A stretch of 64,000 nt of DNA from Butyricicoccus pullicaecorum (lineage in GTDB: Bacteria > Bacillota > Clostridia > Oscillospirales > Butyricicoccaceae), in NCBI GenBank assembly GCA_018366035.1, contig JAGZIW010000006.1:126847-190846 (forward strand), given 5' to 3'. Positions 10,557 to 27,890 of the stretch are shown one piece after another. The translations under genes and the position numbers were made by a program. Under the pieces are notes generated by a model. It searched no databases. It worked only from the letters and a program-made list of their open reading frames with translations, and was not told the origin of the DNA. Numbering within the stretch: the stretch's first letter is position 1; each line of letters begins with the position of its first letter.

Positions 10557-11900
10557 TCAAAGCGCCAGCATGACAGAGGAGTGAAACACATGCAGGTCGT
10601 GAGTGAACTCCACCCCTCCATCGTATTTGTCTGCAATCGCCTCGATATTACGCAGCCCCAAACCGCTGTGATTAGGTTTGCTGGAAATATATCGGCCACC
10701 AACTTTTTTTGTTTCCTCGTGAAAGCCATTGTCCACAGTAATTGCCAGCATTTGCCCGTAACAGAGCATGTGAAACTGTATGAATCGCTCGTCCGGCTCT
10801 CCGCGGCTGGCAGCGTAGATGGCGTTTTCCAGCAGATTGCCGAGGATCACAGAAAGGTCGATATCCGAAATGGAAAGCGTATCAGGAATCTGGATACGGG
10901 CGTCAAAGCGAATATCCTCTTGTATGGCGATAGTCTGATAGTATCCAACGACCATGTTGACTATGGGGTTGTGGCAGAGCTCGATTAACTCATCTTGCTG
11001 AACAGCACACAGATACTGTTCCAAATATTCGCTTGCTTCCTGTACTTGGCCACGCTGCAAGAAGCCTTGCAGCGTAATAATATGATGCCGCATATCGTGA
11101 CGCAGCCGGCGGCTGTTCTCGATGTTGGTACAAATGTGATGATACTGTTCCTTTTGAATGGAAAGCAGGTGGCGGGTCTGACTTGTATCGTGCTGAGAGC
11201 GCAGCTTTTCATAGGAGAGATATATCATTTTGAAGAAGATGAGATAAATCGTCAGAACCAGCGCAAACAGGGCAAAATACAGGAACAGAGACATTGGATT
11301 ATAGAGGTATTCATAGTCGATGAAAGACAGCCCCACGGTCAGCAGCAGAAAGAGAAACAAGGGAAGTCCCGATAGATAGGTACATTCCTTGGCTGTCAGC
11401 TCAGCTTCCATCGGGCAGTAGTACCGAATCAGAATCAATAGGAACAAGGGCAGAATCAGTGCGGTGCTCAAAGCCAGACTGATAATTGTCCAGCTGCGGT
11501 AGGGAAGCCCGTCATAACCAGTGGAGGGGAGCAGGCGGGTACAGATGACATTGTTGATAGAAGTGATTACCAGTCCGCAGGTAAGGACAAAGGAAAAAAT
11601 AAATAGTTTTTTCTGCCAGATTTCTCTGACCAAATACAGATACCAGATCAGGCAGGGAAACAGACACAGGATAAAGGCCACGTTGACTGCTTGAAACAGG
11701 GTGTGGTCAGGAGGAAACAGCTGCTGTAAAGTACAGCCACCGATTGCAAAAAGTATAGCAAGTGTCAGGATCAGCCAAAGAGTCAAGACTACAGAGCGCT
11801 TTGTGGACAAGCGAAGATGTTTGCGGTAGGGATAAAACGCAAGGACAGCAAAGGGAATAATTTGCAGCAAAAAGCCGGTAAACAGTCGGAGAAAGGTCAT
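10557..11900 (-). CDS. Membrane sensor histidine kinase of the AgrC/ComD/BlpH-like (HPK10, GHKL HATPase_c_5) type.
   Basis: The 447-aa protein has about 8-10 TM helices. It has the H-box RHDMRHHIITLQG and a C-terminal GHKL ATPase region (N-box LLENAIYA, G-box GLGLRNIEAIADKYDGG). Its cognate LytTR regulator lies immediately upstream. Confidence 0.8.
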   Translation of the reverse strand: MTFLRLFTGFLLQIIPFAVLAFYPYRKHLRLSTKRSVVLTLWLILTLAILFAIGGCTLQQLFPPDHTLFQAVNVAFILCLFPCLIWYLYLVREIWQKKLFIFSFVLTCGLVITSINNVICTRLLPSTGYDGLPYRSWTIISLALSTALILPLFLLILIRYYCPMEAELTAKECTYLSGLPLFLFLLLTVGLSFIDYEYLYNPMSLFLYFALFALVLTIYLIFFKMIYLSYEKLRSQHDTSQTRHLLSIQKEQYHHICTNIENSRRLRHDMRHHIITLQGFLQRGQVQEASEYLEQYLCAVQQDELIELCHNPIVNMVVGYYQTIAIQEDIRFDARIQIPDTLSISDIDLSVILGNLLENAIYAASRGEPDERFIQFHMLCYGQMLAITVDNGFHEETKKVGGRYISSKPNHSGLGLRNIEAIADKYDGGVEFTHDLHVFHSSVMLAL

Positions 11901-11905
11901 GGCAT

Positions 11906-12616
11906 TTACCTCCGTGTCAGGTCGAATAGGAATCGTTGGTACTGTGCTTTGAGTTCGGCACGATTGTTTCTGGAAAGAGAAATTTCGGTTCCATCTTTCA
12001 GAATCAGCTTGCTGGAGAGAAAGGAACGAATAAATTCCATATTCACCACAAAGCTGCGCTGAGGTCGCAGAAAACGGCAGCTGTCCAATTGTTCAAAGAG
12101 CGTATTTAGAGAAGTGTAGGTCTGAAACTGCTGTGTATTTGTATGAACGATACACAGCTTATTAAACACCTCGATATAGGTGATTCGTTTGGCTGGAATA
12201 GAAATGCTGCCTTGACTGCTATGAATGTGCAAAACAGGGTTGGCACTCTCTCCCAAACGGGTAAGACAGCGATCCATTGCTTCCCACACGGCGGACTGCT
12301 CTAAGGGTTTGAGCAGATAGTGCACTGCGCCCAGACCAAAGGCTTCAATGGCGTGCTCTCGACTAGTGGTGATGAATACGACCTGTGGATCTCCGCCCAG
12401 ATGCCGAATGACTTCTGTGCCCAGAAGCCCGTCTAGATAAATATCCATGAAGATGATTTGAAAGCTCTGTGACATATCTAAAAGCGCTTCTCCTCTGAAA
12501 AAGCGTGTAATGGCAAATTCCAGACCGTGTGTGGATTGGTATGCCCGAAGAAAGGCTTCCAGAATATCGAGTTGCTGCGGTTCATCATCGCACAGCGCGA
12601 TCTGCAAGAGGAACAC
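11906..12616 (-). CDS. LytTR-family response regulator (ComE/AgrA-like).
   Basis: The receiver domain has an acidic N-terminus (LCDDEP) and the phospho-acceptor in IIFMDIYLDG. The C-terminal LytTR domain reads …YIEVFNKLCIVHTNTQQF…FLRPQRSFVVNMEFI. Confidence 0.85.
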   Translation of the reverse strand: MFLLQIALCDDEPQQLDILEAFLRAYQSTHGLEFAITRFFRGEALLDMSQSFQIIFMDIYLDGLLGTEVIRHLGGDPQVVFITTSREHAIEAFGLGAVHYLLKPLEQSAVWEAMDRCLTRLGESANPVLHIHSSQGSISIPAKRITYIEVFNKLCIVHTNTQQFQTYTSLNTLFEQLDSCRFLRPQRSFVVNMEFIRSFLSSKLILKDGTEISLSRNNRAELKAQYQRFLFDLTRR

Positions 12617-12969
12617 TTCCTTTCCTTATGATTTAGTTTATCATAACAACAAATCTGTTTCAGCACAACAAGTTATTTCGTAAAAAGCAGATTTTTGGCG
12701 TGAACTGCACATCTATGATTGGGGCGAGTCATATATAATAAAGATAAACCAAAAAGGTGAATCAAATTTTAATTAAGAAAGAGGCAGATGTTCTCTGTAG
12801 GAAAGGAGAGCACCTGTATTAGAAATTGATTCCACAATAGAAAGTTCCTATATAGATTAAGGTGTGCAATCTATTGCAGGGGCGCAGCAGACCCGTAATT
12901 GCAATAATTCATATGAGTTTAAGCCATTTTTTGATGACAAACAAGGGGAAGTGAAGAGGGGAAAAGGTC

Positions 12970-14133
12970 ATGAGAGTGTTGCAAAAGATAGGTATATTAT
13001 GTCTGACAATGTTTATAATGGCGGTGCTGACTGCTTGTGAAGCAGGGAAGGATCCTCAAAAAACTGTCGAAAAAACGACTGTACGTATAGCAGTAATGGG
13101 AAATCCTGAAAATTTTTACGCTTCTTATATGGACGGTATAGAAGCAGCTGTTTCTGATGTCCAAAAGGAGTATGCAGATACCGAATATCTCTTTGATGTT
13201 GAGTTTTTCAACGATGAATCAAATTATGAAAAAGGCATGAAAATTGTTGACCAATTGATACACAATGATGATTTTATCGGTGTAATCGGTTCGAGAAATA
13301 TGGAAATTAGCAGTGGAACCGCACATATTTTCGATGAGTACGGAAAGGTTTTCGTTGCACCATATTATATGTATGACAGTGTGTGTGCGGATAACTATTA
13401 TGATTATGTTTTTTCCATGTGCAGTTCTGCTAAAAATACAGGAATCCTTTTAAGAAAAGCAGCAGAGCAGAGCAATGCTGAAAAATGGGCAGCATGCTTC
13501 ACTTCCCGTGAATTTGAGAGAGACGAACTGATTGGTTTTGTAAATTATCAAGGTTACAAAACCGAAGTCGTAGACTGCATATCCATAGAGGAATTGAGTA
13601 AGGATTTCGATGCAGTGTATGATAAATGGGAGCTGTTAGGGGTGGAAGGTGTTGCTTTCTTTGTAAAAGAATTGGAAGGACATAACATCTTGAAGAAGCT
13701 GAAAGCGAAAAATCCGAATCTGGTTTGCGCAGGCGATATCTTATTTGATGACAGCTTGATGATGGAGGAAGATGCAGCATTTGAAGCCGGAATGAAAGAC
13801 TTCATCATAGCAGACGCTTTCTATTTAGATGAGAATGACGAAAGTGAAAACCAGAAGGTTGATCAGATTGCACAAAGCTATCTTCGTGAAAAGGGTATTC
13901 AGATAGATTATTGGTATTTGCAGGGCTATAATGCAGTGCGTATGCTTTGCGATACTGTTGTAAAAAATAAAACGACAGATCCAAAGGTGATAGCTGAGGC
14001 TTTGCACGTTGATGGATATGACGGGCTTATGCAGATATTCCAGTTTGATATGCGCGGTGTTCAGACCAAGGTTCCTGATTATTATCAAATCTATACATCA
14101 GAGGGCACTTGGAAGAAATATATTGCACATTAG
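12970..14133 (+). CDS. Lipoprotein with a type-I periplasmic-binding-protein (Leu/Ile/Val- or amide-receptor-like) fold.
   Basis: Lipobox LTAC after the signal peptide. The two-lobed PBP-like sequence (IAVMGNPEN…IGVIGSRNM…) is present. It is the first gene of the exporter operon and no permease or ATPase partner is adjacent. Confidence 0.65.
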   Translation: MRVLQKIGILCLTMFIMAVLTACEAGKDPQKTVEKTTVRIAVMGNPENFYASYMDGIEAAVSDVQKEYADTEYLFDVEFFNDESNYEKGMKIVDQLIHNDDFIGVIGSRNMEISSGTAHIFDEYGKVFVAPYYMYDSVCADNYYDYVFSMCSSAKNTGILLRKAAEQSNAEKWAACFTSREFERDELIGFVNYQGYKTEVVDCISIEELSKDFDAVYDKWELLGVEGVAFFVKELEGHNILKKLKAKNPNLVCAGDILFDDSLMMEEDAAFEAGMKDFIIADAFYLDENDESENQKVDQIAQSYLREKGIQIDYWYLQGYNAVRMLCDTVVKNKTTDPKVIAEALHVDGYDGLMQIFQFDMRGVQTKVPDYYQIYTSEGTWKKYIAH

Positions 14134-14144
14134 GGGGATCGTTA

Positions 14145-15019
14145 TGGGATTGTTCAGAGAAAAAGCCATGCAAAGCAGCAGTACATTATCTGATGTCGGA
14201 AGGGGAATTGCAGGTATTCGTATTTCTGTATGGCTTTCGGTCATGGGTCTTGGAATTTGTGCTGCCGTTTTTATGATATGGCTGTTTTTCGGCACGATAT
14301 ATGAGACTGTTTCCGTTACTGGACTTGTATGGCCTTTGGAATCTGGAGGAACAGTATATGCGGAAACAACAGGTATTGTAACAGGACAAGTGATATATTC
14401 TGGTGCAGAGGTGAAAGCTGGAGATATTTTGGCGATTTTATACGATGATGAAGCACTCATGCAGCTCGATCTTGCCAAAACAGAAAATTCTTCTGCCTTT
14501 GCAGAATTACAAAAAAAGTACATTAGAAAAACGGTTGTTCGTTCTCATGTTGACGGTATCGTATCGCACATTGTAGATAAGGATACTCGTGTTGCCGAAG
14601 GTGAAGTAGTAGCAGAGGTCATTCCCTTTGATAAAGACGGAAATAATAAAAGAATTACCACATTTATTCCGGCTGATCGGTTAGATCAAATCGAAAATAA
14701 TATGGAGGTTCAGATTGTCCCCGAATTTGCGTCACGGGATAGGGACGGATATGTCTATGGTTATATATCGAGTGTTGGAAAATATCCAATAACCGGAGAA
14801 TATGTCAAGCAGTATTATGATTCTATATTTTCTTTGGGTATCGATATGCAGGAAAAGTATATCTGTGTGGAAATCACAATGGTTTCCGACGCAAACGCAA
14901 AAAGTGGATTAAAATGGTCCAATACAAAAAGTGAGGAAATTGATATAGGTCTGGGAACGCTCTGCCATTGCGATGTTGTCACCAATAAGCTGCAGCCATA
15001 CCAGTATTTGGTCAGGTAG
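14145..15019 (+). CDS. HlyD-family membrane-fusion/adaptor protein (bacteriocin-secretion accessory type).
   Basis: The RBS GGGGGA precedes ATG(MGLFRE). There is one N-terminal TM helix and a biotin-lipoyl-like hairpin (VIYSGAEVKAGDILAILYD). It is shorter than LcnD/ComB (291 aa). Confidence 0.7.
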
Positions 15020-15027
15020 GTGACAGT

Positions 15028-17166
15028 ATGAAAAAAGTGAAAAAGGTAAAACCAGTATTACAGATGGAGGTTACGGAATGTGGTGCAGCTTCACTTTGTA
15101 TGATACTGGATTATTATGGAAAATCAGTTGCGATGGAGCAGCTGCGTCTTGAGTGCGGGGTTTCCAGAAATGGCGTCAATGCAAAAAATATAGCAAGAGC
15201 CTCTATGCTGCATGGGCTCAAGCCACGCGCCTTAAAGGTGGGCGTACATGCAGCAAAGGAATTGAAATTTCCTGCCATCATTCACTGGAATATGGATCAC
15301 TTTGTGGTGCTTTGCGGATTCACAAAAAAAGGTGCTGTGATTGCAGATCCAGCGTCAGGGCTAAGATATGTACTGGAAGAAGAATTTTCCAAAAACTTTA
15401 CTGGGATTGCGCTGGAATTTACACCGAATGAAAGCTTTGAAAAAAATAGAACGCTGAAAAAGGATTATATCAAATCCTGTCTAAAATCGTTCGCACTCGT
15501 TCTGATTATATTTGTGGTTTGTGAGTTTTGCATGCTCATATCTGGCGGTGTTCTTCCTTTTCTAAACTCAGTATACATTAATAAAGTGCTTTTAGATGGT
15601 AAAATGCAGCAGCTTTCCTTTGCAACTGCGGTATTACTTATTTGTTTGTTGATTGCTTTTTTTGGTGGTGTGATAAGGGCATATACCATAAACAAAATTG
15701 TAAAACAGTTGAATGCGAAATTGAATTTTGGATTTTTTGAGCATATATTAAAATTTCCCATAGAATTTTTCTTGCAGAGAAATTCCGGAGAGCTGGCTAT
15801 GAGGCAGGGGGAAGTGATGAATACGGGAAGATGGATTGTGATGATGCTGCCGTTTATCTTCACATCAATGCTTCAGATTTTCATATATCTGACACTTTTG
15901 ATTTTTATGAATCTAAAAATTGCAATCATTGGTGCTGTTATGGTCGTAGTGAATGCAATAGCCGTGGTAATCGCTTCCAAGCGGTATCGGGAAAAGGTTA
16001 TGAGATCTGATCGGGAACGCGCCACGCTGCAAGGGCTTATTTCGCAAACTATAGACGCTGTGGAAACGATAAAATCCTGTGGCTGTGAAGATGCTGTTTT
16101 TGAAAGGCTGATTTCTGCCGGCAGTATCGCAATCAATGCAAGAACAGAGATCGAAAAGACCACAGTTCTCACCAATACAGTATTTACATTTTTGAACGCT
16201 TTTTCCTCAGCTTTGGTGATTGTGGCAGGTGTATGGGAAATCTTATTCAGTTCTTTGACGACAGGCTCCCTGATTGCGCTTCAGGGGGTTATGGCGGCAA
16301 TGCTGGCACCAATTGGAAACGCGATGAATATGGGATTTCAGATGCAGCAGCTCTCTGGTATGACACACAGAACAAATGATGTCATGCGCTATATGACAGA
16401 TACAAAGTTTGCCGAAGCTGAGCAGAAAGAGTTAACAGAGCTGGACAGTGACATAACATTTGAAAACATCACGTTCGGATATAGCCCTTTGGATACGCCA
16501 ATTTTAAAGGATTTTCATTTCCATATAAAAAAAGGAGGCAGTCTAGCCATAGTAGGCGGCAGTGGCAGTGGAAAATCTACTGTTGCAAAGCTGATTGCAG
16601 GATTGTTTTGTGAACAAAACGGTAAGATATTTTTTGGCAGCAGCGAAAGAAAGGAAATCGGACGAGATGACTTCTATTCGGAGGTTGCAGTCGTAACACA
16701 AAGTATCAGGCTTTTTGAGGGAACTGTGCTGGATAATATCACCATGTTTGACAATACCATTCCGTATGATGATGTTGTCGCTGCGGCAAAAATCGCTTGT
16801 ATTCATGAGGGGATTATTGCAAGACCTTCAGGTTATCGTGAGTGGGTGTCAGAAAATGGAAGAAATTTTTCAGGTGGGCAAAGACAGAGAATTGAAATTG
16901 CAAGAGCAATTGTGAAAAAGCCAAAACTGCTGATTATGGACGAGGCAACAAGCGCCTTAGATGCGGACACGGAAATGGATATTATGCAGGCAGTGTCTGA
17001 CATGGGAATCACAACGATTGTAGTAGCACACAGGCTTTCTGCAATAAGATATTGCGATAGTATCATTGTTATGAGAAATGGAGAGATTGCAGAACGTGGT
17101 ACGCACCATGAGCTTATGGCAATGGACGGAGAATATGCTGCGCTTCAGAGAGAAGGTGATATCTAG
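15028..17166 (+). CDS. Peptidase-C39 domain ABC transporter (bacteriocin/peptide-pheromone exporter, ComA/LagD-like).
   Basis: The N-terminal C39 domain has catalytic Cys18 (VTECGAASLCMILDYYG) and His (HFVVL). It also has a 6-TM permease domain and an NBD with Walker A GGSGSGKST, signature SGGQRQRIEIARA and Walker B LLIMDEAT. Confidence 0.9.
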   Translation: MKKVKKVKPVLQMEVTECGAASLCMILDYYGKSVAMEQLRLECGVSRNGVNAKNIARASMLHGLKPRALKVGVHAAKELKFPAIIHWNMDHFVVLCGFTKKGAVIADPASGLRYVLEEEFSKNFTGIALEFTPNESFEKNRTLKKDYIKSCLKSFALVLIIFVVCEFCMLISGGVLPFLNSVYINKVLLDGKMQQLSFATAVLLICLLIAFFGGVIRAYTINKIVKQLNAKLNFGFFEHILKFPIEFFLQRNSGELAMRQGEVMNTGRWIVMMLPFIFTSMLQIFIYLTLLIFMNLKIAIIGAVMVVVNAIAVVIASKRYREKVMRSDRERATLQGLISQTIDAVETIKSCGCEDAVFERLISAGSIAINARTEIEKTTVLTNTVFTFLNAFSSALVIVAGVWEILFSSLTTGSLIALQGVMAAMLAPIGNAMNMGFQMQQLSGMTHRTNDVMRYMTDTKFAEAEQKELTELDSDITFENITFGYSPLDTPILKDFHFHIKKGGSLAIVGGSGSGKSTVAKLIAGLFCEQNGKIFFGSSERKEIGRDDFYSEVAVVTQSIRLFEGTVLDNITMFDNTIPYDDVVAAAKIACIHEGIIARPSGYREWVSENGRNFSGGQRQRIEIARAIVKKPKLLIMDEATSALDADTEMDIMQAVSDMGITTIVVAHRLSAIRYCDSIIVMRNGEIAERGTHHELMAMDGEYAALQREGDI

Positions 17167-19280
17167 TGAAGGAACTTGAAAGAATAAGAGAAAAAAAGCG
17201 TGAAGATATTCGGCTTGCCCATGAGAATATGGAGAAAGCGCTCAAGGGAAATGGTGGTTTACAGGGCGTGAATGCAGTGCTGAAATTTTTAAATGTCAAT
17301 GGGAGTGTTGACGACAGTTTGCCAATTCGTGTACAGCTTGAAAGGCTTACGGAGCGCTATAATATCAATATTCGCTATGGAAAGCTTGAAACAGATTTTT
17401 ATATGAAAGCGATACTGCCCATGCTTGTAAAGACAAAGGAGGATACGTATCTTGCGGTGATACCAAGACAGAACGGCTCCTGCTACTATATAAAGGGCAA
17501 TCAAAAGATAAATTTATCCGAAGAAAAACGTACATTGTTTACAGATGAGGCACTGTACTTTTATAAGAATTTGGGAAATGATAGGGTTACCTTAAAAAGC
17601 CTTGTGCAGTTCATGTTCGATTGTGTATCGACAAGAGATAAGTTGACAGTAATATTGCTTTCCGTAACAGCGTCGGTAAGCGGGCTGCTTCTGCCATGGG
17701 CAAATAACTATATTTTTTCTAAGATTATTCCGACAGGGGATTCGTCGGGCGTTTTAGCTACTGCGGCACTGATGCTGTCTGCAATCCTGACTGCGACGAT
17801 TGTAAAGCTGATTCAATCCTTTGTAATGACCAATTCGATGGCGAGGGTGAGTGCGTATGTCCAAAATAGTGTTATTCATCGATTGCTAAGAGTACAGTCT
17901 GGATTTTTTAAATCTGAGAAGTCAGGAGCTGTTTCGGATTTGATCATGCGGTTTTCTGATATCTTGCAGATTATATCAGCAAATAGTATTACTGCTTTTA
18001 TATCAGCAGCTTTATCTGTGGTATATCTCTATCAAATTTATCATTATGCACCTTCTCTTTTGGGTGTAACGTTTTTGATAACGGCTATACTTTTAATTGT
18101 TATTATAAGAGAAGGTGTATCTAGTATTCAATACAAAAAAACATACGCAAAAGCGCTGTCCGATATGTCTGGCTTTGTTTATGAAATGTTTTCGGGTATG
18201 GAACAGGTAAAGTTAAACGGAGCGGAGGCAAAAATGCTGCATCGGTGGAGTCAACGATATGTCACATGTGCCAATGCGGAGACACCGCCGTTTGTTATAA
18301 GGTATTCCGAAGTGCTTTATAAGCTGATTACGACCCTTGCGATGCTTTTTATATTTTGGGGTGCTGCAGATGTCCCTGCATCGAGTTACATTGCGTTTGC
18401 AACTTCGTATGGTTCGTATATTGGAGCACTGATGAGTCTCGCGGGCGTAATTGCAACAATTGGTGAGTTTCAGGCAGCCTACGAAATGGTGCGTCCGCTC
18501 TTTGATGCAGGGCTTGAGGAGACAGAGACGAACAAGCAAAGACCAGCAGAGATAAATGGTGAGATCACGGTTTCAGATTTGTCGTTTCGATATCATGATA
18601 CAATGCCTTATATCATAAAGGACATGTCTTTTCGTGTGAAAAAGGGCGAGAGTATTGGAATTGTGGGAGCCTCAGGCTGTGGGAAATCCACACTGATCCG
18701 GCTGCTTTTGGGATTTGAAACGCCTGAGGACGGCAGTATTTATATTGACGGATTTGATTTGAGAGAGCTGGATTTGAAATATTATCGGCAAAATATTGGT
18801 ACCGTGATGCAAAATGCAAAGCTGATATCAGGAGATATTTATTCTAATATAGTATTGACAAAGCCAAATGCACACATTGACGAGGTGTGGGAAGCGGTTT
18901 CTCTGGCGGGCCTGTACGATGATATTACAGCACTTCCTATGGGACTGCATACGCCTGTTAGTGAGGATAACTGTACGCTTTCCGGAGGTCAACGGCAGAG
19001 AATATTGATAGCGAGAGTCATGATTGCAAAGCCATCTATACTGATCTTTGATGAAGCGACATCTGCACTGGATAATATTACACAGGCTAAGATTACAGAA
19101 GGTATCAATCGGCTTGACTGCACGAAACTGATAGTGGCGCACCGATATACAACAATTAGGGCTTGTGATAGGATTTTTGTGATGGATCGAGGTAGGATTG
19201 CAGAATGTGGTACTTATCATGAGTTGATTGCTAAAAAGGGCATATTTTTTGGACTGATGTCAGGACAAAAGTTGCAATAA
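17166..19280 (+). CDS. Second ABC transporter permease/ATPase with an N-terminal non-catalytic (C39-like?) extension.
   Basis: GTG start overlaps the upstream stop. The first 150 aa or so lack the Cys/His protease motifs. Then come a 6-TM domain and an NBD (GASGCGKST, LSGGQRQRILIARV, ILIFDEATSALD). Tandem pairing with a C39-ABC resembles the TIGR03796/TIGR03797 'NHLM' exporter pair. Confidence 0.85.
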   Translation: MKELERIREKKREDIRLAHENMEKALKGNGGLQGVNAVLKFLNVNGSVDDSLPIRVQLERLTERYNINIRYGKLETDFYMKAILPMLVKTKEDTYLAVIPRQNGSCYYIKGNQKINLSEEKRTLFTDEALYFYKNLGNDRVTLKSLVQFMFDCVSTRDKLTVILLSVTASVSGLLLPWANNYIFSKIIPTGDSSGVLATAALMLSAILTATIVKLIQSFVMTNSMARVSAYVQNSVIHRLLRVQSGFFKSEKSGAVSDLIMRFSDILQIISANSITAFISAALSVVYLYQIYHYAPSLLGVTFLITAILLIVIIREGVSSIQYKKTYAKALSDMSGFVYEMFSGMEQVKLNGAEAKMLHRWSQRYVTCANAETPPFVIRYSEVLYKLITTLAMLFIFWGAADVPASSYIAFATSYGSYIGALMSLAGVIATIGEFQAAYEMVRPLFDAGLEETETNKQRPAEINGEITVSDLSFRYHDTMPYIIKDMSFRVKKGESIGIVGASGCGKSTLIRLLLGFETPEDGSIYIDGFDLRELDLKYYRQNIGTVMQNAKLISGDIYSNIVLTKPNAHIDEVWEAVSLAGLYDDITALPMGLHTPVSEDNCTLSGGQRQRILIARVMIAKPSILIFDEATSALDNITQAKITEGINRLDCTKLIVAHRYTTIRACDRIFVMDRGRIAECGTYHELIAKKGIFFGLMSGQKLQ

Positions 19281-19388
19281 CAAAAATGAGAAAGAGGTGA
19301 AAAGATAACAAGGAAAGAACTCATATATTTGCGTGAAAAATCACGCAGCAGGTTGTTCAATGCAAAATGAATTAAGGAGGGGAAAAAC

Positions 19389-22300
19389 TTGAATAAAATT
19401 CAACAGAGGGCAGTAAGTGGTATTTTGTCATTTTCAATGATTGTATCAGCAATGCCCAGCGCATTTGCGCGAAATGAATCAATTAGTGGGACAGCCGAAA
19501 TTTCTTTTGCGGCGTCAAAGTATGTCGTCTCAGAAAATGAAAAAAAGCTGAAAGTGAAAATCGTACGCTCAGGCGGTAACGAGAGTAAGATTGATGTAGC
19601 ATTTAAGACAGCTGATTTTACTGCTGAATATGGCGCTGACTATGTTGTACTTGACGAAAACGGTGATGAATTGCCTGTTGTTGACGGAATTGCTCCAGAT
19701 GAATCTATGTTTGAGGAGGTATCGGACAATGCAATCATTACAGAGGTTGATGAGGATACTACTGTAACAGACGATCAAACCACTGAAAAATTAGAGGAAT
19801 CAGAGCAAAATACTGAAGATAACAATACAACAGATGAAATCATAAACGATGAGGGAGAGGTCGAAGAGCTTTCGACTGTAATTGAAAATGTTTCTGATGC
19901 GGAAATTCAGGAGGAGACCGCTGATGCAGAGAAGCCGGAGGAGTCTCTTGAAAAATCAGAGTCTGAGAATAGCAATCCTGTAACAGGTGAACAGACAGAT
20001 GAAAAATCTGAACAGCCCGGTGAAGATGTTGGAGATGATACCACGGGAGACGAAGGCGGTGAGGATACCGATACTGAGACTCAGGAGCCGACAGAAAATG
20101 TTCCAGATACAGAAAAGCAGGACGAGGTATCTGATACTGCGGAAGATGAGCCAACTTTGGATAGTCAAGGCACAGCAAGGACCTCCACCGGTTCTGCTCT
20201 GCTTGATGCACAGGCACAGTATTTACAATTGCCTGACGAAGATGGAGAGACTGCGGAAGCAGTAGAAAACATTCTTACAGAGACAAACAACTATTTTCAA
20301 GGTGCGCGTGGTGCAGTGGGTGTTGTGACCTTTCAGGAGGGACAAACCCAAAAGGAAATCACAATAAAGATTCTTGATAATGATCGCGCTCATGCAGATA
20401 AGATTATCATGCTGTCGCTTATGGGAATAAACGGCGATGAGAAAACTTCACTTGCAGCAAATCCTACGGCGTATGTTAATATTATGGACGATGAGGCATA
20501 TGAAAAGCCTGTTATTACTCCAGCGATCAATGAAATTACGCTGACAGAGCAGGAGCCGACCTATGAACTTACGCTCACAAGAAACGAGGGCGTTGAATAC
20601 TACACTTCTGTTCTTGTTTCGACAGTTAAGGGCACAGCACAAGAGGGCTACCATTATGAAAAAATCGAAAATGCAAGCCTTGCGTTTGTGCCCGGAGAAA
20701 CAGAAAAGAAAGTGAAGATTTCAGCGGAACACTTCGACAAAGAAATGACGTTTGGAATTCGCTTGGAAAGTGATGGCACCTGTGAGATAACAGATGAATA
20801 CATTGATGTAACCATGGCGGCAAAGTCTGCGCAAGCTGCTGTAATAAATAGCGAAGCCGCTGTGCTAACGTCTGTGGATAATAACATTGCGCAGGCAGCA
20901 TCAAATGTACTCGGAGCCCCATCTACACTAGTTGTACTGGATATGGAGAAGGGGCCTAGCATGGGCAGTCAGGATGGTTGGCATAGAAGGGGAGAAAGGG
21001 ATTATGGTCTTTATGAAACCTATAAGAATAGTGGCAGGACATGGGTTGCGAAGAATGCAACCAATCTTTCTGGCGTAGACAAAATTTCGTTTTCTCATCA
21101 GAACAAGGGACATTATGTCGGAAAACGTGGGGCATACCATATCTTTATTGAACTCCTTCGTGGAAAGGACAGAGATGATTACGGAGCATCTGGTGACAAA
21201 AATCTCAGAAAAGATGGAAATCATGGATGGACAGACAGTAGGCTAGATGTTTCGGAGTTGAACGGTGATTATTTTATCCGTTTTGGTATCAGAAATGATG
21301 GCTGGCCCGCTGATAATGCGGAAAGCTGGTTTGGAGATCGTGTGCATTTAGAGTGGAAAAGGTATAACTTTGACATTCATAACAAACAGGTATTTAACCG
21401 CCTTGCATATGATTACGCAGATAAAACTGGTGAAGCTTTAAAAATCGCATATACAGATGGTCAAGATGATTATGATTATATTCCTTCTGTGAAGCTGGTG
21501 GATAACGCAGGCAATGAGGTAAGTGGTTTTTATGCGAATGCAAATCAAACAATAAAGCCGGTATCGACAAATCCGCAGCTTGATGCAAAGTATGGCGTAG
21601 AGCTTGAGGGCGTATATCTTTATACAAAAGACAACGACAGTCTTTATAGGAAAGAGACCAGATACCCATATAAGGATCATTGGTATACAGACAAGACGTT
21701 GTGGATACCTTCGAGCGGCATAAGCGCAGACCAGAGTTTGGCAGAACGCATTGACAAAACATTTGGACGCAATGTAACAGTAGTCAAAGTGATGCCGAAG
21801 TTTAAGCAAAAAACAATCACGTTAAATGTTCATAATATAGATGATGAAAATACGTATATTGCTAATATGAACAGCAAGCAGGCGGAAAGCTATCGTGATT
21901 GGGGGGCGAGGGGATATTATAATCAATATACCTTCCCAATGAATTCCAAGATTAAGGTTCGTGCGGTTGGTGCTTCAAATAAAACGATTACAGGATTCAA
22001 AGTAGATCTGTGGTCAAAGTCGGATAAGGACGATCCGATCTATTCTGATAGTAATGCACCAGAAAGAATGACGTATGTTCTTTCTGAAAATATGAGTTTT
22101 TATCCGAGAACCGAGAATGACGGAATGAATGTTGCGTATATGCCGAATGTGGATAAGGTGGTAGATGATCTGACAGGGCGCGCATTTCTCCAGCCGTCAA
22201 CCGCACAGGAGGCAGAAGAGCTGCTCGCTTCCAATAAAAACGGTGATATCCATATCAAAACAGTTTATCCGGGCATGCTCTGGACACTGCGCGCAACAGC

Positions 22301-25300
22301 ACCAGAAGGATATTATGTCAAGTGGACAAATGGAACCGGAGATATTAAAAATATCAACGGAATGATAGATGCAAGCTCCGATCCAAATGTCAACGAGCAA
22401 ACAGAAAGTACGAAAAAGTTCAAGGACTTGTATAATCCGATTTTCGGTGATATATTGTCTCGCGATATCGTACAGAACAACACAAAATATTATTATGAGT
22501 TTGTAAAGAATAACAATACATCAACGGTAGTCAAAGGCAGAGTAGAACGGGAAAATGGAAGTTTTTACGATGTGGTACACAATAGGCGGCTCGATGTAAC
22601 ACCAGTTAACGCGACACAGGTAAGTATTGCGGGAACTGCTGGATTTACAGATGGGACGGGTCACTTTGCCATAGAGGTTAAAAATGTTCCACGTTCAGGA
22701 ATGATTAGTATTCTGGTAGATGACAATGGAACTACGTATCCCGCTACAGCGTTGATAAATAATCTATATCTGACACTTCCGGCGTACGAGTGTTTCAAGC
22801 CAAAGGCATTGAATATAAGATATGAAGATGATGTAACCAATAAAATAAACGGTACAGCTGTCAATGTCAAAGATGATACACTGCATATAACCGCAGAGGT
22901 CGAAAGCAATGGTACCATTGAGCCTGTGGACGCAAAATTCTCTATCCATAAGGTGAATGGTTCGGTGATTGATTGTTCAACAGACAGCAGATTTACCAAC
23001 GGGTTTGCAAACAGAACAGCAACACTCAGCTTTAATCCGAAATCTGTATTGGATTCGGGTGACAGAATATACGTTTCTTTCACAGACCAGAATGGTAAGT
23101 CTTATAAATCAATGGATTTGGGGTATGACTTTGTTACGCCGCTTAATCTCGGAACCTTTTTGTTCCCGCTGATTGGCAGTGAGCTGCTCGAAGACACATA
23201 CAGCAGTGCGGTAGAGCTGATAGGTGACCCACTTGGCAACGTATCGTTAGGTAAGATTGGCTTTGATGAACCTGTAACGGAAGATGTTACTCCGCCGGGA
23301 ATGGACTCCAATGAGTATAAGTATCAAATGACAACTTATCAATTTGGTGACTATAAGAGTGCGGTAAAGACCTTCGGTGCGGAGAGTGAGGAGGAGCCTG
23401 ACCAGAGCAAGAGTGAAGAGACAAAGAAAAAGGCGAAAAAGGCATTGGACAAGAACGGTCAAAAACCTGATGGAGGAGGATATAAAACGGCAAAATCCTT
23501 CTCATGGGAGCTTTCCCCTAAAATGGTATTTGCCATGCAGCTAACAAGCCGAAATGTAGATGGTGAATACAAATACTTCTTTGAAGAACTGGATTTCATT
23601 GTAGGGCTTGACTTTGATGTGGACGGAAAAATAACGATCACTTTGCCCATTGGAATGAACGTCATTATCACGGCTGGACTGAATGGAAATATTACTGGCA
23701 TATTCCAACTCAAAACCGATTACACAGGAGATTCGACATGGAACACCAATAAGGTCGAGTACAGTCCGGAGACATTCGGATTATTCGAAGAAATAGAGCA
23801 TGTCAACAGAAAGGCATATCTGATGCTCGATCCGAATATTTCGCTTGGACTTGGCGTAGAGATTGCAATTATTGAATTGGGTGGACATGCGAACTTCAAC
23901 TTTGATATGGATTTTGAATTTGGACTGAATGCAGGTTCGTTAGGACACCGCATGTACGGTGATATGACATATAACTTTGATTATTATATCAAGGTGCTGT
24001 CATTTGAGGTTTACTCTAATGCAACAAAGGAACAGACTGTCAAGCTATTTTCGGAGAATGCCGATGGACATATCGAACCCGACCTCATTCCGGATCTTTT
24101 GAGTGCGGAAGATGATAGAATACAATCCATACAGTCAACAAGAGATTATCTTGACAATGAATCGGGGTGGAACAGCAGCAATTATGCAATATCACCTTTT
24201 GATATCGATGCAGGCAATACAGAGGAAATGACTTTGCAAAGCGGAATATATCCCAGCGCAAAGACAACGCTTACACCAATTGGTGGCGGTAAGATGTTTA
24301 TGACATTCATCGGTGATGTGCCGTCAAGAGGTGATGTGGATCGAACTGGTCTGTTTTACTCCATATATGATGGCACAACATGGTCACAGCCAAAGCTGGT
24401 AGACGATGATGGAACGCTAGATGATTACCCGAATGTATTTGATTTGGGAGATAAGCTGTTGATTTCATGGTCCTCGGCAGACAAAAAGTTTGGGAACAAT
24501 GCAACAACGCAGCAGGCTTTGTCCGCGCTGGATATCAAGACGGTGTTCTTTGAAAAAAAGAGTGAACGTTTTGAACAGGTGACACAGCTGACACATAAAA
24601 CAGAGCAGGACTATGCTGCGGATGTGAATCCGAAGGCTGCATATGACAGTACAAGCGACAGACTGATACTCTACTATACCAAAACTGAGTATGAAGATGC
24701 CAAAACATTGACAGATCTTACTACTGCTGCATCGGTTATCGCATACCGTTTCTATGAAAATGGGAAGTGGAATGATGCATCAAGCTATACAGATAAAGAG
24801 CTTGCAGGTGTTACAGACAAGGAGGCGTATAAACGAAATTGGTACGGTCAGAGATTCCTTGATACGAGACTTGACAAAATGAGCCAAGAAATGCTCCGAA
24901 TCGTTGATTCCGATGCAATTTCTTACAACGGGCTGGCGCTCTATGCATGGACGGTTGACTATGATAAGGATTTGAATACCGTAGAGGACCGCGATGTATT
25001 CATGCAGATTTATAACTTTAAGCAAAATGATTTTACCCATATCGTAAAAATGACGCCAGAAGCAGGTGCGTATCAAGCACCACAATTTGGCCGATATAAA
25101 GATGAAACATTCCTGTTCTATTCTTCTATTGGGAAATTGGGAGAAGGTGAGAATCAAGAACAAAGCGGTATTGCTTATTTGGAGGTAAGCGATATTATCT
25201 CAAACGATAAGTACACAAAGGTCAATATAGGTTCCTCTGAGTACTATAAGCTGGAATACGAAACAATGTCTGGGGAAACAACTTCCAGCGATGGAACAAT

Positions 25301-27431
25301 CATTCCCGAAGAAAAGCAAACTGTAAAGATTATGCCGTCATATGCTGTGAAATTAGATGGATATGTAAACAATTACAGTGTTGACGTCGATCAGAACGAA
25401 AGCATGTATTTGACATGGACAAATTCTGATGAAAATGGTTCCAGACAGGTATATACATCTATTTTTGACTGTGACCCGTCTGTGGGTACGAAAGCTGCAG
25501 CAGCTGATGAGGCTTCGCGGAACTCAGACTGGAGTGAAGCGTTTAAGCTGACAAATGCAGAAGATGTATCGTACAGAAATGCTGATGCAGCTGTTATGGA
25601 CGGAAAGCTTTATATTGTATCATCAAAGACTCCTTATATTACAGATGGTGACAGCAAGAAGCTTGATGATAACAATACAAGCCTTGTCATGCTGACACAT
25701 ATACCATATGCAAGGGCTGTAACAGTCGATGAAAATGCGCTGACAGTAAATACAGAATATGTGTATCCGAATACAGGATTCGTTCTAACTTCAACAGTAA
25801 AGAATGAGGGTACTAAATTTATTGACAAACCAGTTACCTTTAGATTCACAATGGTATCTAATGGTGTGGTGACAGAGTTTGGAACACAGACCGTAGAAGG
25901 TGTCTGGGGTGCCGGAAAGATGTTGCAGGCATCTGTCAATGTTCCTGCAATTTCTGAGATTCGTGATGATCTTACTTTCTGTGCAGATATTACCGTAGAA
26001 GGCGGAACACCAATTCGACAGGAGATGCGTATTATAAAGGAGCATAATCTGGTTTCTGATGGAGATGCCTCTCTCGTAGAGAATACGGACGGGCATAGTC
26101 TGTATATCCCGCTGAAAAACAAGGGAAATGTCACGTCCCCAGAGGTTACGGTAAGTCTATATACCGCGAAGGGAGATACTGTAGATAAGCTGATAGACGC
26201 ATATACTGTCAATACCATTGCCGAAAATACATCAATAACGATGGAGGAGACGGTTCAAATTCCTGACAGTGCCTTTGTGATTGATGAAAATGACGGTGCA
26301 GCAGATATTATTGCAGTGGTACAGGCTGGCGGCGAGGACGTGATTACACTCAAAGCGACTGCACACAAAAATTTCGATGCACAGGCAATCGAAACGATGC
26401 GTAAGGTGACTGGTGTGTCCATCGAGGGCAATGACAGAATTTATGCAAAGCGCCTTGAGGATATTGAAATTGCAACGGAAGTTGGAGGTACAGCAGGCGA
26501 TGAAGTTATGGTTCTCTGGAAAAGCGACAATGCAGATGTTGTATATGTCAGAGAAGACAACACTTTGTTTGCAGCCGGAAACGGTACGGCTCGTCTGACA
26601 GGTTATGTTATCCCGTCTGCACAAAATATCGTATTCCAATACGACGGAACATCAGAGAAGGAAGATGTGCTGAAGAATATACCTTCGACACTGCATCACA
26701 CAGTAGTTGCAGATGTAATCGTAAACGAAACTGGCACAGATTCTGGTGGTGGTTCTTCCGGAGGCAGTTCCGACGATGATGATGATTTTGATAAAGAGGA
26801 ACCCAAAAAGGAAGAAGAATTGAATGAGCCAACTACACCGTCAACCGGAACTTGGACAAATCCATTCCGTGATGTTTCTAGCGATGATTGGTTCTTTGAC
26901 AGCGTTCAATATGTTTGTGAGAACAACATCTTCAAGGGCATGACGGATACAAGCTTTGAACCACACGCCAAATTGACAAGAGCAATGCTGGTAACAGTGC
27001 TCTATCGTTTGGAGGGAGATTTAGATATGAATGGAATTTCAGGAAGTTCGTTTACAGATGTGGCAGCAGAAAGCTGGTATGGAGATGCTGTATATTGGGC
27101 AAGCCAGAACGGGATTGTAAAGGGGTATGCAGAAGGAACTTTTGCGCCAAATGATCAAATTACCCGTGAACAGTTTGCGGCCATTATGGAGCGTTATGCT
27201 ACCTATGAGGGAAATAGAGTATCAAATTCTGTCGATATGTCGCAATTTACGGACAAAGAAGAAATTTCAGATTGGGCAGTCACAAGTCTTTCTTGGGCGG
27301 TTGGCTCCGGTTTGATTTCTGGTAAGGGCAATGGTATCCTAGATCCAAAGGGCAGCGCAACACGTGCTGAGGCTGCTGCAATTCTCCAGAGATATATAGA
27401 AAATATATCGAAAAACAGTATGGTACAATAA
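19389..27431 (+). CDS. Giant (2680 aa) secreted multidomain S-layer-homology surface protein.
   Basis: TTG start after RBS AAGGAGGGG, then a Sec signal peptide (…SAMPSAFA|RNES). Two Calx-beta-like domains are present, the first split by a D/E/T-rich insert of about 200 aa. A BNR Asp-box (SIYDGTTW) and CARDB-like segments (VKNEGT.., LKNKGNV..) follow. A Big_2-like domain, a GS/D-rich linker and three C-terminal SLH repeats (WFFDSVQYV…, WYGDAVYWA…, DWAVTSLSWA…) complete the protein. Confidence 0.85.
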   Translation: MNKIQQRAVSGILSFSMIVSAMPSAFARNESISGTAEISFAASKYVVSENEKKLKVKIVRSGGNESKIDVAFKTADFTAEYGADYVVLDENGDELPVVDGIAPDESMFEEVSDNAIITEVDEDTTVTDDQTTEKLEESEQNTEDNNTTDEIINDEGEVEELSTVIENVSDAEIQEETADAEKPEESLEKSESENSNPVTGEQTDEKSEQPGEDVGDDTTGDEGGEDTDTETQEPTENVPDTEKQDEVSDTAEDEPTLDSQGTARTSTGSALLDAQAQYLQLPDEDGETAEAVENILTETNNYFQGARGAVGVVTFQEGQTQKEITIKILDNDRAHADKIIMLSLMGINGDEKTSLAANPTAYVNIMDDEAYEKPVITPAINEITLTEQEPTYELTLTRNEGVEYYTSVLVSTVKGTAQEGYHYEKIENASLAFVPGETEKKVKISAEHFDKEMTFGIRLESDGTCEITDEYIDVTMAAKSAQAAVINSEAAVLTSVDNNIAQAASNVLGAPSTLVVLDMEKGPSMGSQDGWHRRGERDYGLYETYKNSGRTWVAKNATNLSGVDKISFSHQNKGHYVGKRGAYHIFIELLRGKDRDDYGASGDKNLRKDGNHGWTDSRLDVSELNGDYFIRFGIRNDGWPADNAESWFGDRVHLEWKRYNFDIHNKQVFNRLAYDYADKTGEALKIAYTDGQDDYDYIPSVKLVDNAGNEVSGFYANANQTIKPVSTNPQLDAKYGVELEGVYLYTKDNDSLYRKETRYPYKDHWYTDKTLWIPSSGISADQSLAERIDKTFGRNVTVVKVMPKFKQKTITLNVHNIDDENTYIANMNSKQAESYRDWGARGYYNQYTFPMNSKIKVRAVGASNKTITGFKVDLWSKSDKDDPIYSDSNAPERMTYVLSENMSFYPRTENDGMNVAYMPNVDKVVDDLTGRAFLQPSTAQEAEELLASNKNGDIHIKTVYPGMLWTLRATAPEGYYVKWTNGTGDIKNINGMIDASSDPNVNEQTESTKKFKDLYNPIFGDILSRDIVQNNTKYYYEFVKNNNTSTVVKGRVERENGSFYDVVHNRRLDVTPVNATQVSIAGTAGFTDGTGHFAIEVKNVPRSGMISILVDDNGTTYPATALINNLYLTLPAYECFKPKALNIRYEDDVTNKINGTAVNVKDDTLHITAEVESNGTIEPVDAKFSIHKVNGSVIDCSTDSRFTNGFANRTATLSFNPKSVLDSGDRIYVSFTDQNGKSYKSMDLGYDFVTPLNLGTFLFPLIGSELLEDTYSSAVELIGDPLGNVSLGKIGFDEPVTEDVTPPGMDSNEYKYQMTTYQFGDYKSAVKTFGAESEEEPDQSKSEETKKKAKKALDKNGQKPDGGGYKTAKSFSWELSPKMVFAMQLTSRNVDGEYKYFFEELDFIVGLDFDVDGKITITLPIGMNVIITAGLNGNITGIFQLKTDYTGDSTWNTNKVEYSPETFGLFEEIEHVNRKAYLMLDPNISLGLGVEIAIIELGGHANFNFDMDFEFGLNAGSLGHRMYGDMTYNFDYYIKVLSFEVYSNATKEQTVKLFSENADGHIEPDLIPDLLSAEDDRIQSIQSTRDYLDNESGWNSSNYAISPFDIDAGNTEEMTLQSGIYPSAKTTLTPIGGGKMFMTFIGDVPSRGDVDRTGLFYSIYDGTTWSQPKLVDDDGTLDDYPNVFDLGDKLLISWSSADKKFGNNATTQQALSALDIKTVFFEKKSERFEQVTQLTHKTEQDYAADVNPKAAYDSTSDRLILYYTKTEYEDAKTLTDLTTAASVIAYRFYENGKWNDASSYTDKELAGVTDKEAYKRNWYGQRFLDTRLDKMSQEMLRIVDSDAISYNGLALYAWTVDYDKDLNTVEDRDVFMQIYNFKQNDFTHIVKMTPEAGAYQAPQFGRYKDETFLFYSSIGKLGEGENQEQSGIAYLEVSDIISNDKYTKVNIGSSEYYKLEYETMSGETTSSDGTIIPEEKQTVKIMPSYAVKLDGYVNNYSVDVDQNESMYLTWTNSDENGSRQVYTSIFDCDPSVGTKAAAADEASRNSDWSEAFKLTNAEDVSYRNADAAVMDGKLYIVSSKTPYITDGDSKKLDDNNTSLVMLTHIPYARAVTVDENALTVNTEYVYPNTGFVLTSTVKNEGTKFIDKPVTFRFTMVSNGVVTEFGTQTVEGVWGAGKMLQASVNVPAISEIRDDLTFCADITVEGGTPIRQEMRIIKEHNLVSDGDASLVENTDGHSLYIPLKNKGNVTSPEVTVSLYTAKGDTVDKLIDAYTVNTIAENTSITMEETVQIPDSAFVIDENDGAADIIAVVQAGGEDVITLKATAHKNFDAQAIETMRKVTGVSIEGNDRIYAKRLEDIEIATEVGGTAGDEVMVLWKSDNADVVYVREDNTLFAAGNGTARLTGYVIPSAQNIVFQYDGTSEKEDVLKNIPSTLHHTVVADVIVNETGTDSGGGSSGGSSDDDDDFDKEEPKKEEELNEPTTPSTGTWTNPFRDVSSDDWFFDSVQYVCENNIFKGMTDTSFEPHAKLTRAMLVTVLYRLEGDLDMNGISGSSFTDVAAESWYGDAVYWASQNGIVKGYAEGTFAPNDQITREQFAAIMERYATYEGNRVSNSVDMSQFTDKEEISDWAVTSLSWAVGSGLISGKGNGILDPKGSATRAEAAAILQRYIENISKNSMVQ

Positions 27432-27454
27432 TTTTTAGAAAGGTTGATAAAATT

Positions 27455-27613
27455 ATGGCAAAGGAAATGAAGAATCTAAACAAAGAGGCAGAGGAGCAGG
27501 ACGTTCAGGAGCTTGACTTTGACGAATTGGAAGAGGTTACAGGAGGATCTATAAAAGATGTCGTTTATACCCCGACGGTAGATATCAGTCAGGACACGAA
27601 GTTAAAAATCTGA
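27455..27613 (+). CDS. Double-glycine-leader precursor peptide, 52 aa. It is absent from the ORF track because it is under 60 aa.
   Basis: ATG lies 24 nt after the giant-protein stop, with RBS GAAAGG upstream. Translation is MAKEMKNLNKEAEEQDVQELDFDELEEVTGG|SIKDVVYTPTVDISQDTKLKI. The leader fits the GG consensus (L-12, E-8, L-7, V-4, GG). An intrinsic terminator follows directly. Confidence 0.7.
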   Translation: MAKEMKNLNKEAEEQDVQELDFDELEEVTGGSIKDVVYTPTVDISQDTKLKI

Positions 27614-27630
27614 GTTCTGTGAAGTGAAAT

Positions 27631-27668
27631 GTGGAGAGCTGTTTTATAACAGCTCTCCACATTTTTAT
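27631..27668 (+). terminator. Intrinsic terminator ending the exporter/giant-protein/peptide operon.
   Basis: GTGGAGAGCTGTT-ttat-AACAGCTCTCCAC followed by ATTTTTAT. Confidence 0.8.
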
Positions 27669-27840
27669 CTGATGGAGCAACTTTCGCAGGGAAAGCCATG
27701 GAATATCGTGTCTGATAGTTATAGTGTGAAGTTGTCAGAAGTATCCATTATTTTCAGAAAGTCACATGATGCCTTTCTAAAGTTAGATCATTGCCTTCTC
27801 TTCTGTGATATAGTTTTCTTTATAAAATAAATACCGAGGC

Positions 27841-27888: not shown

Positions 27889-27890
27889 AA

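Follow-up and report, generated by a model that had tools for sequence, protein, structure and literature searches.

Gut Clostridia carry a cassette of six genes in fixed order, which encode a LivJ-like lipoprotein, a short HlyD-type adaptor, a peptidase-bearing ABC half-transporter (ABC1), a second half-transporter without a recognisable peptidase domain (ABC2), a giant wall protein and a small peptide with a double-glycine (GG) leader. The representative described here lies in a 64,000-nucleotide stretch (the window) of a metagenome-assembled genome (MAG) of Butyricicoccus pullicaecorum, where the cassette runs on the plus strand and is divergent from the genes of an AgrC/ComD-type sensor histidine kinase and a LytTR-family response regulator. 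Comparison with related loci indicates that this arrangement is a conserved cassette and not a chance juxtaposition, because the same order recurs in about 16 species-level genomes. It also shows a modular build, in which a generic exporter module serves an exchangeable pair of giant protein and peptide, and in which the two-component system is a frequent companion outside the conserved core. The reading that we favour, at a probability of about 0.5, takes the peptide for an autoinducer with an additional functional tie to the giant protein.

The family was delimited by scanning one genome per GTDB species with an alignment of ABC2, which gave 17 relevant loci in 16 genomes, and these loci (cited below by number where they have to be told apart) were compared by tblastn and all-against-all clustering. 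They come from Butyricicoccus, Monoglobus, Candidatus Ornithomonoglobus, Hominilimicola, Oscillospiraceae, and Clostridia and 'Lachnospiraceae' MAGs. In the NCBI taxonomy Butyricicoccus and Monoglobus stand in separate orders, and the spread covers at least two orders, from Butyricicoccaceae to Monoglobales. Wherever a contig reaches far enough the gene order is unchanged; compared with the window proteins, the lipoproteins are 37-44% identical, the adaptors 38-45% and the two ABC proteins 48-56%. The succession of adaptor, C39-ABC and peptidase-less ABC is kept in all related loci, a giant homologue comes next after ABC2 in 13 of 14 species-level loci, and a GG peptide gene stands directly behind the giant gene in every locus that reaches the giant's end (12/12). 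Homologues of the lipoprotein are few, amounting to 16 clusters in an index of 5.8 billion proteins and to 49 representatives among 1.84 billion at E<1e-30, and each retrievable context shows lipoprotein, adaptor, C39-ABC and ABC followed by a large Calx-beta protein. The lipoprotein had no match among the PLSDB plasmids, and a metagenome scan via the ABC2 alignment, which relies on generic Walker-type patterns, returned only unrelated ABC transporters (at most 35-46% identity). The original prediction, made for this locus from the letters alone, had posed co-conservation beforehand as a refuting test; the order lipoprotein, adaptor, ABC pair, giant and GG peptide is found to be kept down to identities of 37-55%.

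The last gene of the cassette (27455..27613, plus strand) encodes a precursor of 52 aa, MAKEMKNLNKEAEEQDVQELDFDELEEVTGG followed by SIKDVVYTPTVDISQDTKLKI, that is, a 31-aa leader of the double-glycine type and a 21-aa core, with the cut predicted after Gly31. The leader ends in DVQELDFDELEEVTGG before the first serine of the core and has V-4, L-7, L-12 and V-15, a hydrophobic pattern that is kept in 15 family peptides, and the leaders are alike throughout the family (ELDLDDLEQVTGG-like in all members). The cores fall into two related types, of which type A follows S-I-x-[DN]-V-x-Y-T-x-T-x-[DE]-I-S-x-D-T-K-x-K-I and type B follows G/S-A-F-D-N-V-P-R-V-P-x-x-x-I-D-D-x-L-[RK]-x-K-I, and conservation of the core across genera lies at alternating positions. 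One locus (L026) has tandem copies of the peptide gene (20324-20482 and 20637-20795) with differing leaders and identical cores. Another (L027, 4302-5582) has a third core type (AGKTTRPPTVTIHKYTETVKEKA), directly after a 359-aa remnant of a type-B giant and upstream of the lipoprotein gene.

[quoted passage not shown] ABC1 (15028..17166, plus strand) combines a Peptidase_C39 domain (PF03412, 118.8 bits) with ABC_membrane and ABC_tran, the transmembrane and nucleotide-binding domains. Its C39 domain carries Q12, C18, H91 and D107 as read from the sequence, which by analogy to ComA we take to be the oxyanion glutamine and the catalytic cysteine, histidine and aspartate. ABC2 (17166..19280, plus strand) is a half-transporter without a recognisable C39 domain. 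Its N-terminal stretch of about 150 aa has no BLASTP similarity to the C39 domain of ABC1, so that the idea of a degenerate C39 domain was dropped. The adaptor (14144..15019, plus strand; 291 aa) is a short HlyD/ComB-like membrane-fusion protein with an N-terminal transmembrane (TM) segment and weak Pfam matches to HlyD_2 and HlyD_3. Searches against TIGR03794, TIGR03796 and TIGR03797 had been proposed for the transporters, and these models are indeed the best matches of adaptor, ABC1 and ABC2, respectively, all below the curated cut-offs: the adaptor reaches 111.4 bits of 156.2 (residues 151-333 on model positions 230-414), ABC1 687.7 of 853.3 over its full length, and ABC2 560.7 of 709.4.

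Two known exporters offer themselves for comparison. PCAT1 of Clostridium (Hungateiclostridium) thermocellum shares with ABC1 the C39-TM-nucleotide-binding architecture, a nearby GG-leader substrate and a clostridial genome. In PCAT1 both subunits of a homodimer carry an active peptidase domain, whereas here one subunit, predicted to be active, is joined by a peptidase-less partner, an adaptor and a lipoprotein. The second system is the NHLP/Nif11 cassette, which the exporter resembles without qualifying as a member: the available portion of its published description has the same order of adaptor, C39-ABC and peptidase-less ABC and a cargo with a GG-type leader (Haft et al., 2010; PMC2887384). 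In contrast, all three proteins here stay under the cut-offs, the adaptor falls short by about 130 aa and covers the C-terminal half of its model only, and the cargo comes without modification enzymes and without an NHLP (TIGR03793) or Nif11-type (TIGR03798) leader, neither of which was found in the NCBIfam scan of the peptide. The LivJ-like lipoprotein and the giant SLH protein, both fixed in the present cassette, go unmentioned in that portion of the description (PMC2887384).

The lipoprotein gene (12970..14133, plus strand) encodes 387 aa with a Pfam Peripla_BP_6 domain and the lipobox LTAC, in which Cys23 is invariant among 16 homologues. Its AF2 model (pLDDT 87.5) compares best, among solved structures, with 4q6b/4mlc, a leucine-binding substrate-binding protein (4q6b: TM-score 0.87, 20% identity), and the model points to a membrane-anchored, LivJ-like protein of the type I periplasmic-binding-protein fold. 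No importer permease is encoded near its gene.

The giant gene (19389..27431, plus strand; 2680 aa) starts with TTG preceded by AAGGAGG. The protein begins with a signal peptide, three Calx-beta domains and an acidic linker, continues with a stretch of unknown fold (about 1100 aa) and a seven-bladed beta-propeller (aa ~1610-2108, nt ~24216-25712), and closes with a CARDB-like Ig domain followed by three SLH domains at the C-terminus (aa 2492-2667). The Sec signal peptide, the Calx-beta domains and the SLH domains bear out the earlier description of a Sec-exported, SLH-anchored protein. It is best regarded as a wall-anchored, adhesin-like protein that probably binds glycans or other ligands. 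A homology search with its central region, which reached at least six distant clusters and is not a census, fed the structure model and led to the loci L047 and L048.

The modular build of the cassette is most apparent from the joint behavior of the giant and the peptide. Peptide type and giant type agree in all ten complete loci (10/10), while the lipoprotein is independent of the peptide type, with 88% identity between type-A and type-B loci. The two Ornithomonoglobus loci L031 and L037 are 88% identical in the lipoprotein, 92% in the adaptor, 78% in ABC1 and 81% in ABC2, and at the DNA level they share a single 11-kb block of 84% identity, the end of which lies about 20 nt inside the giant gene. 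Past this block L031 has a type-B giant, 74% identical to that of L029, and a type-B peptide, and L037 has a type-A giant, 58-64% identical to those of the window and L027, and a type-A peptide. Between the window and L037 the giants are 58% identical and the lipoproteins and adaptors only about 40%. Two further loci have the pair, or what is left of it, without an exporter. In L047 (2639-10614) a dockerin-bearing giant is present as three open reading frames (ORFs; 542, 935 and 968 aa) with no adjoining exporter, and the gene of a type-A-like GG peptide lies upstream and not downstream of it, which suggests a cellulosome-attached relative. The DNA of locus L009 matches that of L023 at 99.5% identity as far as the interior of a NADAR-DarT1 gene; a deletion of about 20 kb, which adjoins a GmrSD/restriction island, took the kinase, the regulator, the exporter and most of the giant, leaving the last ~105 giant codons and a type-A peptide gene (9656-10153). 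These comparisons show a modular cassette, in which giant and peptide are an exchangeable pair served by a generic exporter module. The co-swapping of giant and peptide is not independent proof of a common function, because adjacent genes recombine together.

In the window, an ORF map of 8-31 kb with Pfam and NCBIfam scans reproduced all eight genes of the original prediction in their places. The presence of the HlyD-like gene stood and its start did not, since the source gene call and the homologues place it at 14144, giving 291 aa, and not at the overlapping TTG at 14009. The junctions from the lipoprotein gene to the peptide gene measure 10, 8, -1, 108 and 23 nt, and an intrinsic terminator, a hairpin followed by a T-run, closes the operon at 27631..27668 (plus strand; fold -36.7 kcal/mol, z = -8.4). 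Terminator-like sites inside the operon are not in excess (14 versus 12.4 +/- 3.5 in shuffled sequence), and a hairpin in the gap between ABC2 and the giant gene has no U-tract. From this layout, which agrees with the single operon described before, we infer that the six genes are co-transcribed. A tRNA-Met gene (CAT; 27891-27966, minus strand) with a terminator-like hairpin of its own at 27856-27888 converges on the operon terminator. The GC content is 0.40-0.43 across the operon (12001-28000) and 0.45-0.53 in most of the remaining window, with about 0.465 in the two-component genes; the low value is compatible with horizontal acquisition or with a compositional bias of the operon genes.

The kinase gene (10557..11900, minus strand; 447 aa) encodes a HATPase_c_5 domain of the GHKL class (2.4e-15) behind seven hydrophobic segments, recognised by hydropathy and predicted to span the membrane. 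Of all solved structures, its sequence matches only one, the kinase module of Staphylococcus aureus AgrC (6e52, E 8e-5), and the proposed AgrC/ComD-type assignment, within the multi-TM kinases of the HPK10 type, is borne out. The regulator gene (11906..12616, minus strand; 236 aa) combines the Pfam domains Response_reg and LytTR, and in NCBIfam its best matches are LytR, BtsR and AgrA, all under their cut-offs. The sensor half of the kinase is 80-84% identical among close relatives and 30% identical in distant ones, compared with 86-88% and 34-38% for the kinase half; the sensor is thus about as conserved as the kinase half, which fits a conserved ligand. An AgrC-like kinase, a LytTR regulator or both adjoin the cassette in the Butyricicoccus clade, in L022 and L023, in L024 (LytTR only), L028, L031 and L037. 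Among these, L022 and L023 have another SLH-protein gene between the kinase and regulator genes, and L031 is the only type-B locus with a LytTR regulator, the contig edge preceding its kinase gene. In L037 an orphan AgrC-like kinase of 363 aa with HATPase_c_5 is encoded directly after the peptide gene (20320-21411), and in L032 a receiver domain is encoded directly downstream of the peptide gene (11383-11856).

Between the regulator gene and the operon lies an intergenic region of 353 bp, whose left ~170 bp, including a putative LytTR box, are conserved with L021. The box (12677..12711, plus strand) consists of two direct half-sites, TTCGTAAAAAGCAGA and GGCGTGAACTGCACA, 20 bp apart, and the candidate -10 hexamer of the operon promoter, TATAAT (12733..12738, plus strand), is found 21 nt downstream of it. 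The same layout of box and TATAAT, with about 21 nt between them, is present in L021, L025, L026, L022, L028, L031 and L037, and such a pair of repeats precedes the operon in every locus with a LytTR regulator and in none without that regulator. The half-sites are clade-specific, for example TTTGTGATAAACTGT and TTTGTGATGAACCGT in L037. The box is the only pair of at least 14 bits in the 64-kb window, the window's own sites being part of the training set. A matrix built from the window and L021 alone finds its top match in L022 at 24 bits, compared with 13.7 bits for the next; this site (3549-3640) is again 21 nt upstream of a TATAAT and stands before another SLH-protein gene with its true start at ATG 3638. 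The box claim rests on the internal repeat, on the conserved position and on this independent site in L022, since the cross-clade matrix given below is not significant. The binding sites of pln-type LytTR regulators are two 9-bp repeats, separated by a 12-bp spacer, immediately upstream of the promoter (PMC2714321), and the likeness of the box layout to this arrangement supports control by the regulator. The proposed link between the LytTR protein and the operon is therefore plausible, and on these sequence features we consider it likely that the regulator controls the operon.

Further features of the promoter regions concern the transcript itself and the reach of the box. A 5' leader of about 225 nt (12745..12969, plus strand) precedes the lipoprotein gene; in alignments its segment at ~12790-12950 (~160 nt) is present in the window, L025 and L022 and absent from L021 and L026. 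This segment holds a motif that resembles ATGTGAGTCTAAGC, is conserved in part and lies some 50 nt ahead of the start codon. An Rfam search of the 5' leader and the intergenic region gave a chance-level match only, and no ORF with a GG leader occurs in the 5' leader. The second box promoter of L022 drives the gene of an SLH protein of about 1,330 aa, which is fragmented in L023. In L031 (959-4591) and L037 (2136-5762), an extra gene for a protein of 1208 aa with a weak beta-helix match is the first behind the box promoter, before the lipoprotein gene.

Taken as a mechanism, the favoured reading would run as follows. The phosphorylated regulator would bind the half-sites at 12677-12711 and activate the promoter with its -10 hexamer at 12733, giving a single transcript which, by the layout, would extend for ~14.9 kb to the terminator at 27631-27668. 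From its domains, the giant would be exported by the Sec pathway and held on the wall by the SLH domains. By analogy to the PCAT family, the C39 domain of ABC1 would cut the precursor after Gly31, and ABC1, ABC2 and the adaptor would export the peptide. The free, unmodified 21-mer would most likely act in this lineage as an autoinducer through the 7-TM kinase, making expression of the giant density-dependent. Since the peptide is inherited and exchanged with the giant in all lineages, a further function linked directly to that protein is probable, either now or at the origin of the pair. The lipoprotein may be a receptor or chaperone of the peptide at the membrane surface, which is a best guess.

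Each component of this scheme is of a known class, and the combination of GG peptide, PCAT, AgrC-type kinase and LytTR regulator is a known kind of circuit. The type of system represented in streptococci and lactic acid bacteria by ComCDE/ComAB, BlpCRH/BlpAB and PlnABCD/PlnGH likewise has an unmodified GG peptide of about 20 aa, a C39-ABC assisted by an accessory protein, an AgrC/ComD-type kinase with several TM segments and a LytTR regulator with paired direct repeats just upstream of the target promoters (PMC2714321), to which binding is in our case presumed from the layout. Unlike in those systems, the peptide gene here lies outside the kinase/regulator operon, as the last gene behind an 8-kb surface-protein gene, and the exporter is a two-gene heterodimer accompanied by a lipoprotein. 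Moreover, the peptide, which is neutral or acidic, is conserved from genus to genus, about half of the loci lack the two-component system, and the visible regulon comprises surface proteins and not bacteriocins or competence genes. The staphylococcal Agr and enterococcal Fsr systems share with the present locus the class of kinase and regulator and, as a theme, the control of surface factors by cell density. In Agr the peptides are thiolactone rings, which AgrB makes, whereas here a GG peptide is combined with a PCAT and no AgrB or AgrD homologue is present.

Several observations weigh against the peptide being simply the signal of this kinase. The AgrC-type kinase/LytTR pair adjoins only about half of the loci, compared with the peptide's presence in 12/12, so that there is no strict co-inheritance. 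At L016 and L041 the kinases are of the LytS type and the regulators are others, at L027 an AraC regulator is encoded downstream, no such regulator occurs at L033, L034 and L035 within the available 5-6 kb, and none of this kind occurs at L029 within its 2.5 kb. Because only about half of the loci adjoin the pair and other regulators stand elsewhere, the two-component system is not part of the conserved core. In L022 and L023 the kinase domain is 77% identical but the sensor differs, with two TM segments and an extracellular domain of ~260 aa, and the sensor-swapped species still has a type-A peptide, as seen in the deletion strain L009. (The kinase region of L022 lies at 1784-3385, and the extracellular sensor of L023 has a faint dCache match.) About 12 of the 21 core positions are kept across genera, unlike in fast-diverging pheromones, and the peptide type tracks the giant and not the exporter or the regulator. 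On the side of the promoter, the half-sites are spaced by 20 bp where the canonical LytTR spacing is 21 bp. With a matrix from L028, L031 and L037 the window site comes third and scores 12.4 bits, below the mean maximum of 14.4 in shuffled sequence and not significant, and the similarity of the box across clades is weak because this distant-clade matrix does not single out the window site. The original prediction of a peptide signal coupled through the kinase to the operon is thus supported only in part, with the kinase pair outside the core and the peptide following the giant on the other side of the balance; because the peptide is conserved across genera and exchanged with the giant, a pheromone for the kinase is only one possibility.

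The foremost alternative, which we regard as possible but doubtful, is that the peptide is not a kinase signal at all and is a dedicated partner of the giant, be it a ligand, an assembly or maturation cofactor or a recognition tag. Giant and peptide would then be a polymorphic cargo pair open to any exporter module of this family, and the kinase, where present, would sense something else and switch surface-protein genes on. This would account for the adjacency of the two genes in 12/12 loci and the agreement of their types in 10/10, for the 84% block between L031 and L037 that stops ~20 nt into the giant gene with different giant and peptide types beyond it, and for the higher identity of the giants (58%) than of the lipoproteins and adaptors (~40%) between the window and L037. 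It also fits the peptide beside the split dockerin giant of L047, which has no adjoining exporter, the second GG peptide behind the type-B giant remnant in L027, and the inclusion of another SLH protein in the box regulon of L022. The giant moreover has a seven-bladed propeller, and peptides or glycans are frequent ligands of this fold. Set against this, adjacency alone explains the joint recombination of both genes, and the core resembles no segment of its giant; a strand-mimic idea, in which the core would resemble such a segment, was rejected as its scores were equal to, and no better than, those of shuffled peptides. We know of no precedent for a PCAT-exported peptide that serves as cofactor of a Sec-exported wall protein. 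In its widest form, put forward here tentatively, giant and peptide would be a 'receptor and ligand' or a 'scaffold and cofactor' pair that is exchanged between gut Clostridia as a unit and fitted to a generic exporter module of lipoprotein, adaptor and ABC pair, with the AgrC/LytTR system as a lineage-specific add-on. If this were true, the peptide would bind the giant, for example at the propeller, or the lipoprotein, and would in this way regulate adhesion, self-recognition or aggregation.

If the peptide were a toxin, either an unmodified class II bacteriocin or one like a microcin, with the giant gene as an unrelated passenger, this would explain why a GG leader, a C39-ABC, an accessory protein and a LytTR system, the classical class II gene set, occur together. 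There are also weak matches in the leader region: TIGR03949 is the sole NCBIfam match of the peptide (17.1 bits, below the cut-off of 21.5), and PF04604, the type A lantibiotic family, reaches 20.0 bits where 21.7 are needed, in the leader only. The cores themselves speak against a toxin, since they are free of cysteine, hydrophilic and not cationic, and have no hydrophobic or amphipathic stretch. Net charge and GRAVY are about -0.5 and -0.11 for type A and about -1.2 and -0.80 for type B, and the unmodified 21-mer of the window has a predicted monoisotopic mass of 2362.3 Da and a net charge of about 0. No small immunity-like membrane-protein ORF is conserved in or beside the cassette at any of the loci, no modification enzyme is encoded within the window region, and the core is conserved across genera and strictly paired with the giant gene. 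A type A lantibiotic was rejected on the sub-threshold PF04604 score, the cysteine-free core and the lack of a modification enzyme in the window region. By its sequence the peptide does not look like a bacteriocin or a RiPP, and because the mature peptide would be unmodified and of about zero charge with no immunity gene nearby, a bacteriocin is improbable. The original prediction had argued in the same direction from the lack of immunity and modification genes, and the neutral, hydrophilic, cysteine-free core and the family matches under cut-off now add to that argument.

That the arrangement is functionally meaningless, the giant gene having landed in an ancestor between an exporter operon and a peptide gene, is more improbable still. 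It would be in keeping with the locus L035, where a Sec-dependent protein of 1613 aa of the GH115 (alpha-glucuronidase) family replaces the giant (12301-17142) and a GG peptide was not found, and with the operon GC of 0.40-0.43 compared with 0.47-0.53 in the flanks. The order is nevertheless kept in 13 of 14 species-level loci at 37-55% identity across two orders, the giant gene starts 16-26 nt after ABC2 in most loci, and the giant/peptide module is swapped while the architecture is kept. Least credible is secretion of the giant itself by the ABC/HlyD proteins in the manner of type I secretion of giant RTX-like adhesins: the HlyD adaptor and ABC proteins beside a surface protein of several thousand residues with calcium-binding domains are superficially like LapA/LapBCE or SiiE/SiiCDF, but ABC secretion of the giants is excluded because each of the 15 giants that were examined begins with a classical Sec signal peptide and lacks a GG leader, and in addition the giant is SLH-anchored, the locus encodes no outer-membrane component and the evident exporter substrate is the separate, bona fide small GG peptide of the operon.

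The locus defines a small, well-delimited family in gut Clostridia. The combination had been thought to be without an established counterpart, and a full-text search of the literature found no description of this cassette. As far as found, three features are new: the coupling with a giant SLH/Calx-beta/propeller protein is fixed, a LivJ-like lipoprotein is obligatory, and giant and peptide make up an exchangeable pair. Across several genera a PCAT-type exporter is fixed to a lectin-like wall protein of 2,700 residues, a peptide unlike bacteriocins and a LivJ-like lipoprotein. The locus offers concrete handles in the 2362.3-Da peptide, the 35-bp putative operator and the soluble ectodomain of the lipoprotein. 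The genus Butyricicoccus is of probiotic interest. If the peptide is a partner of the giant protein, the cassette would represent a new use of GG-peptide export; if it is an autoinducer, these little-studied, butyrate-producing gut anaerobes would possess a quorum-sensing circuit over a probable major adhesin.

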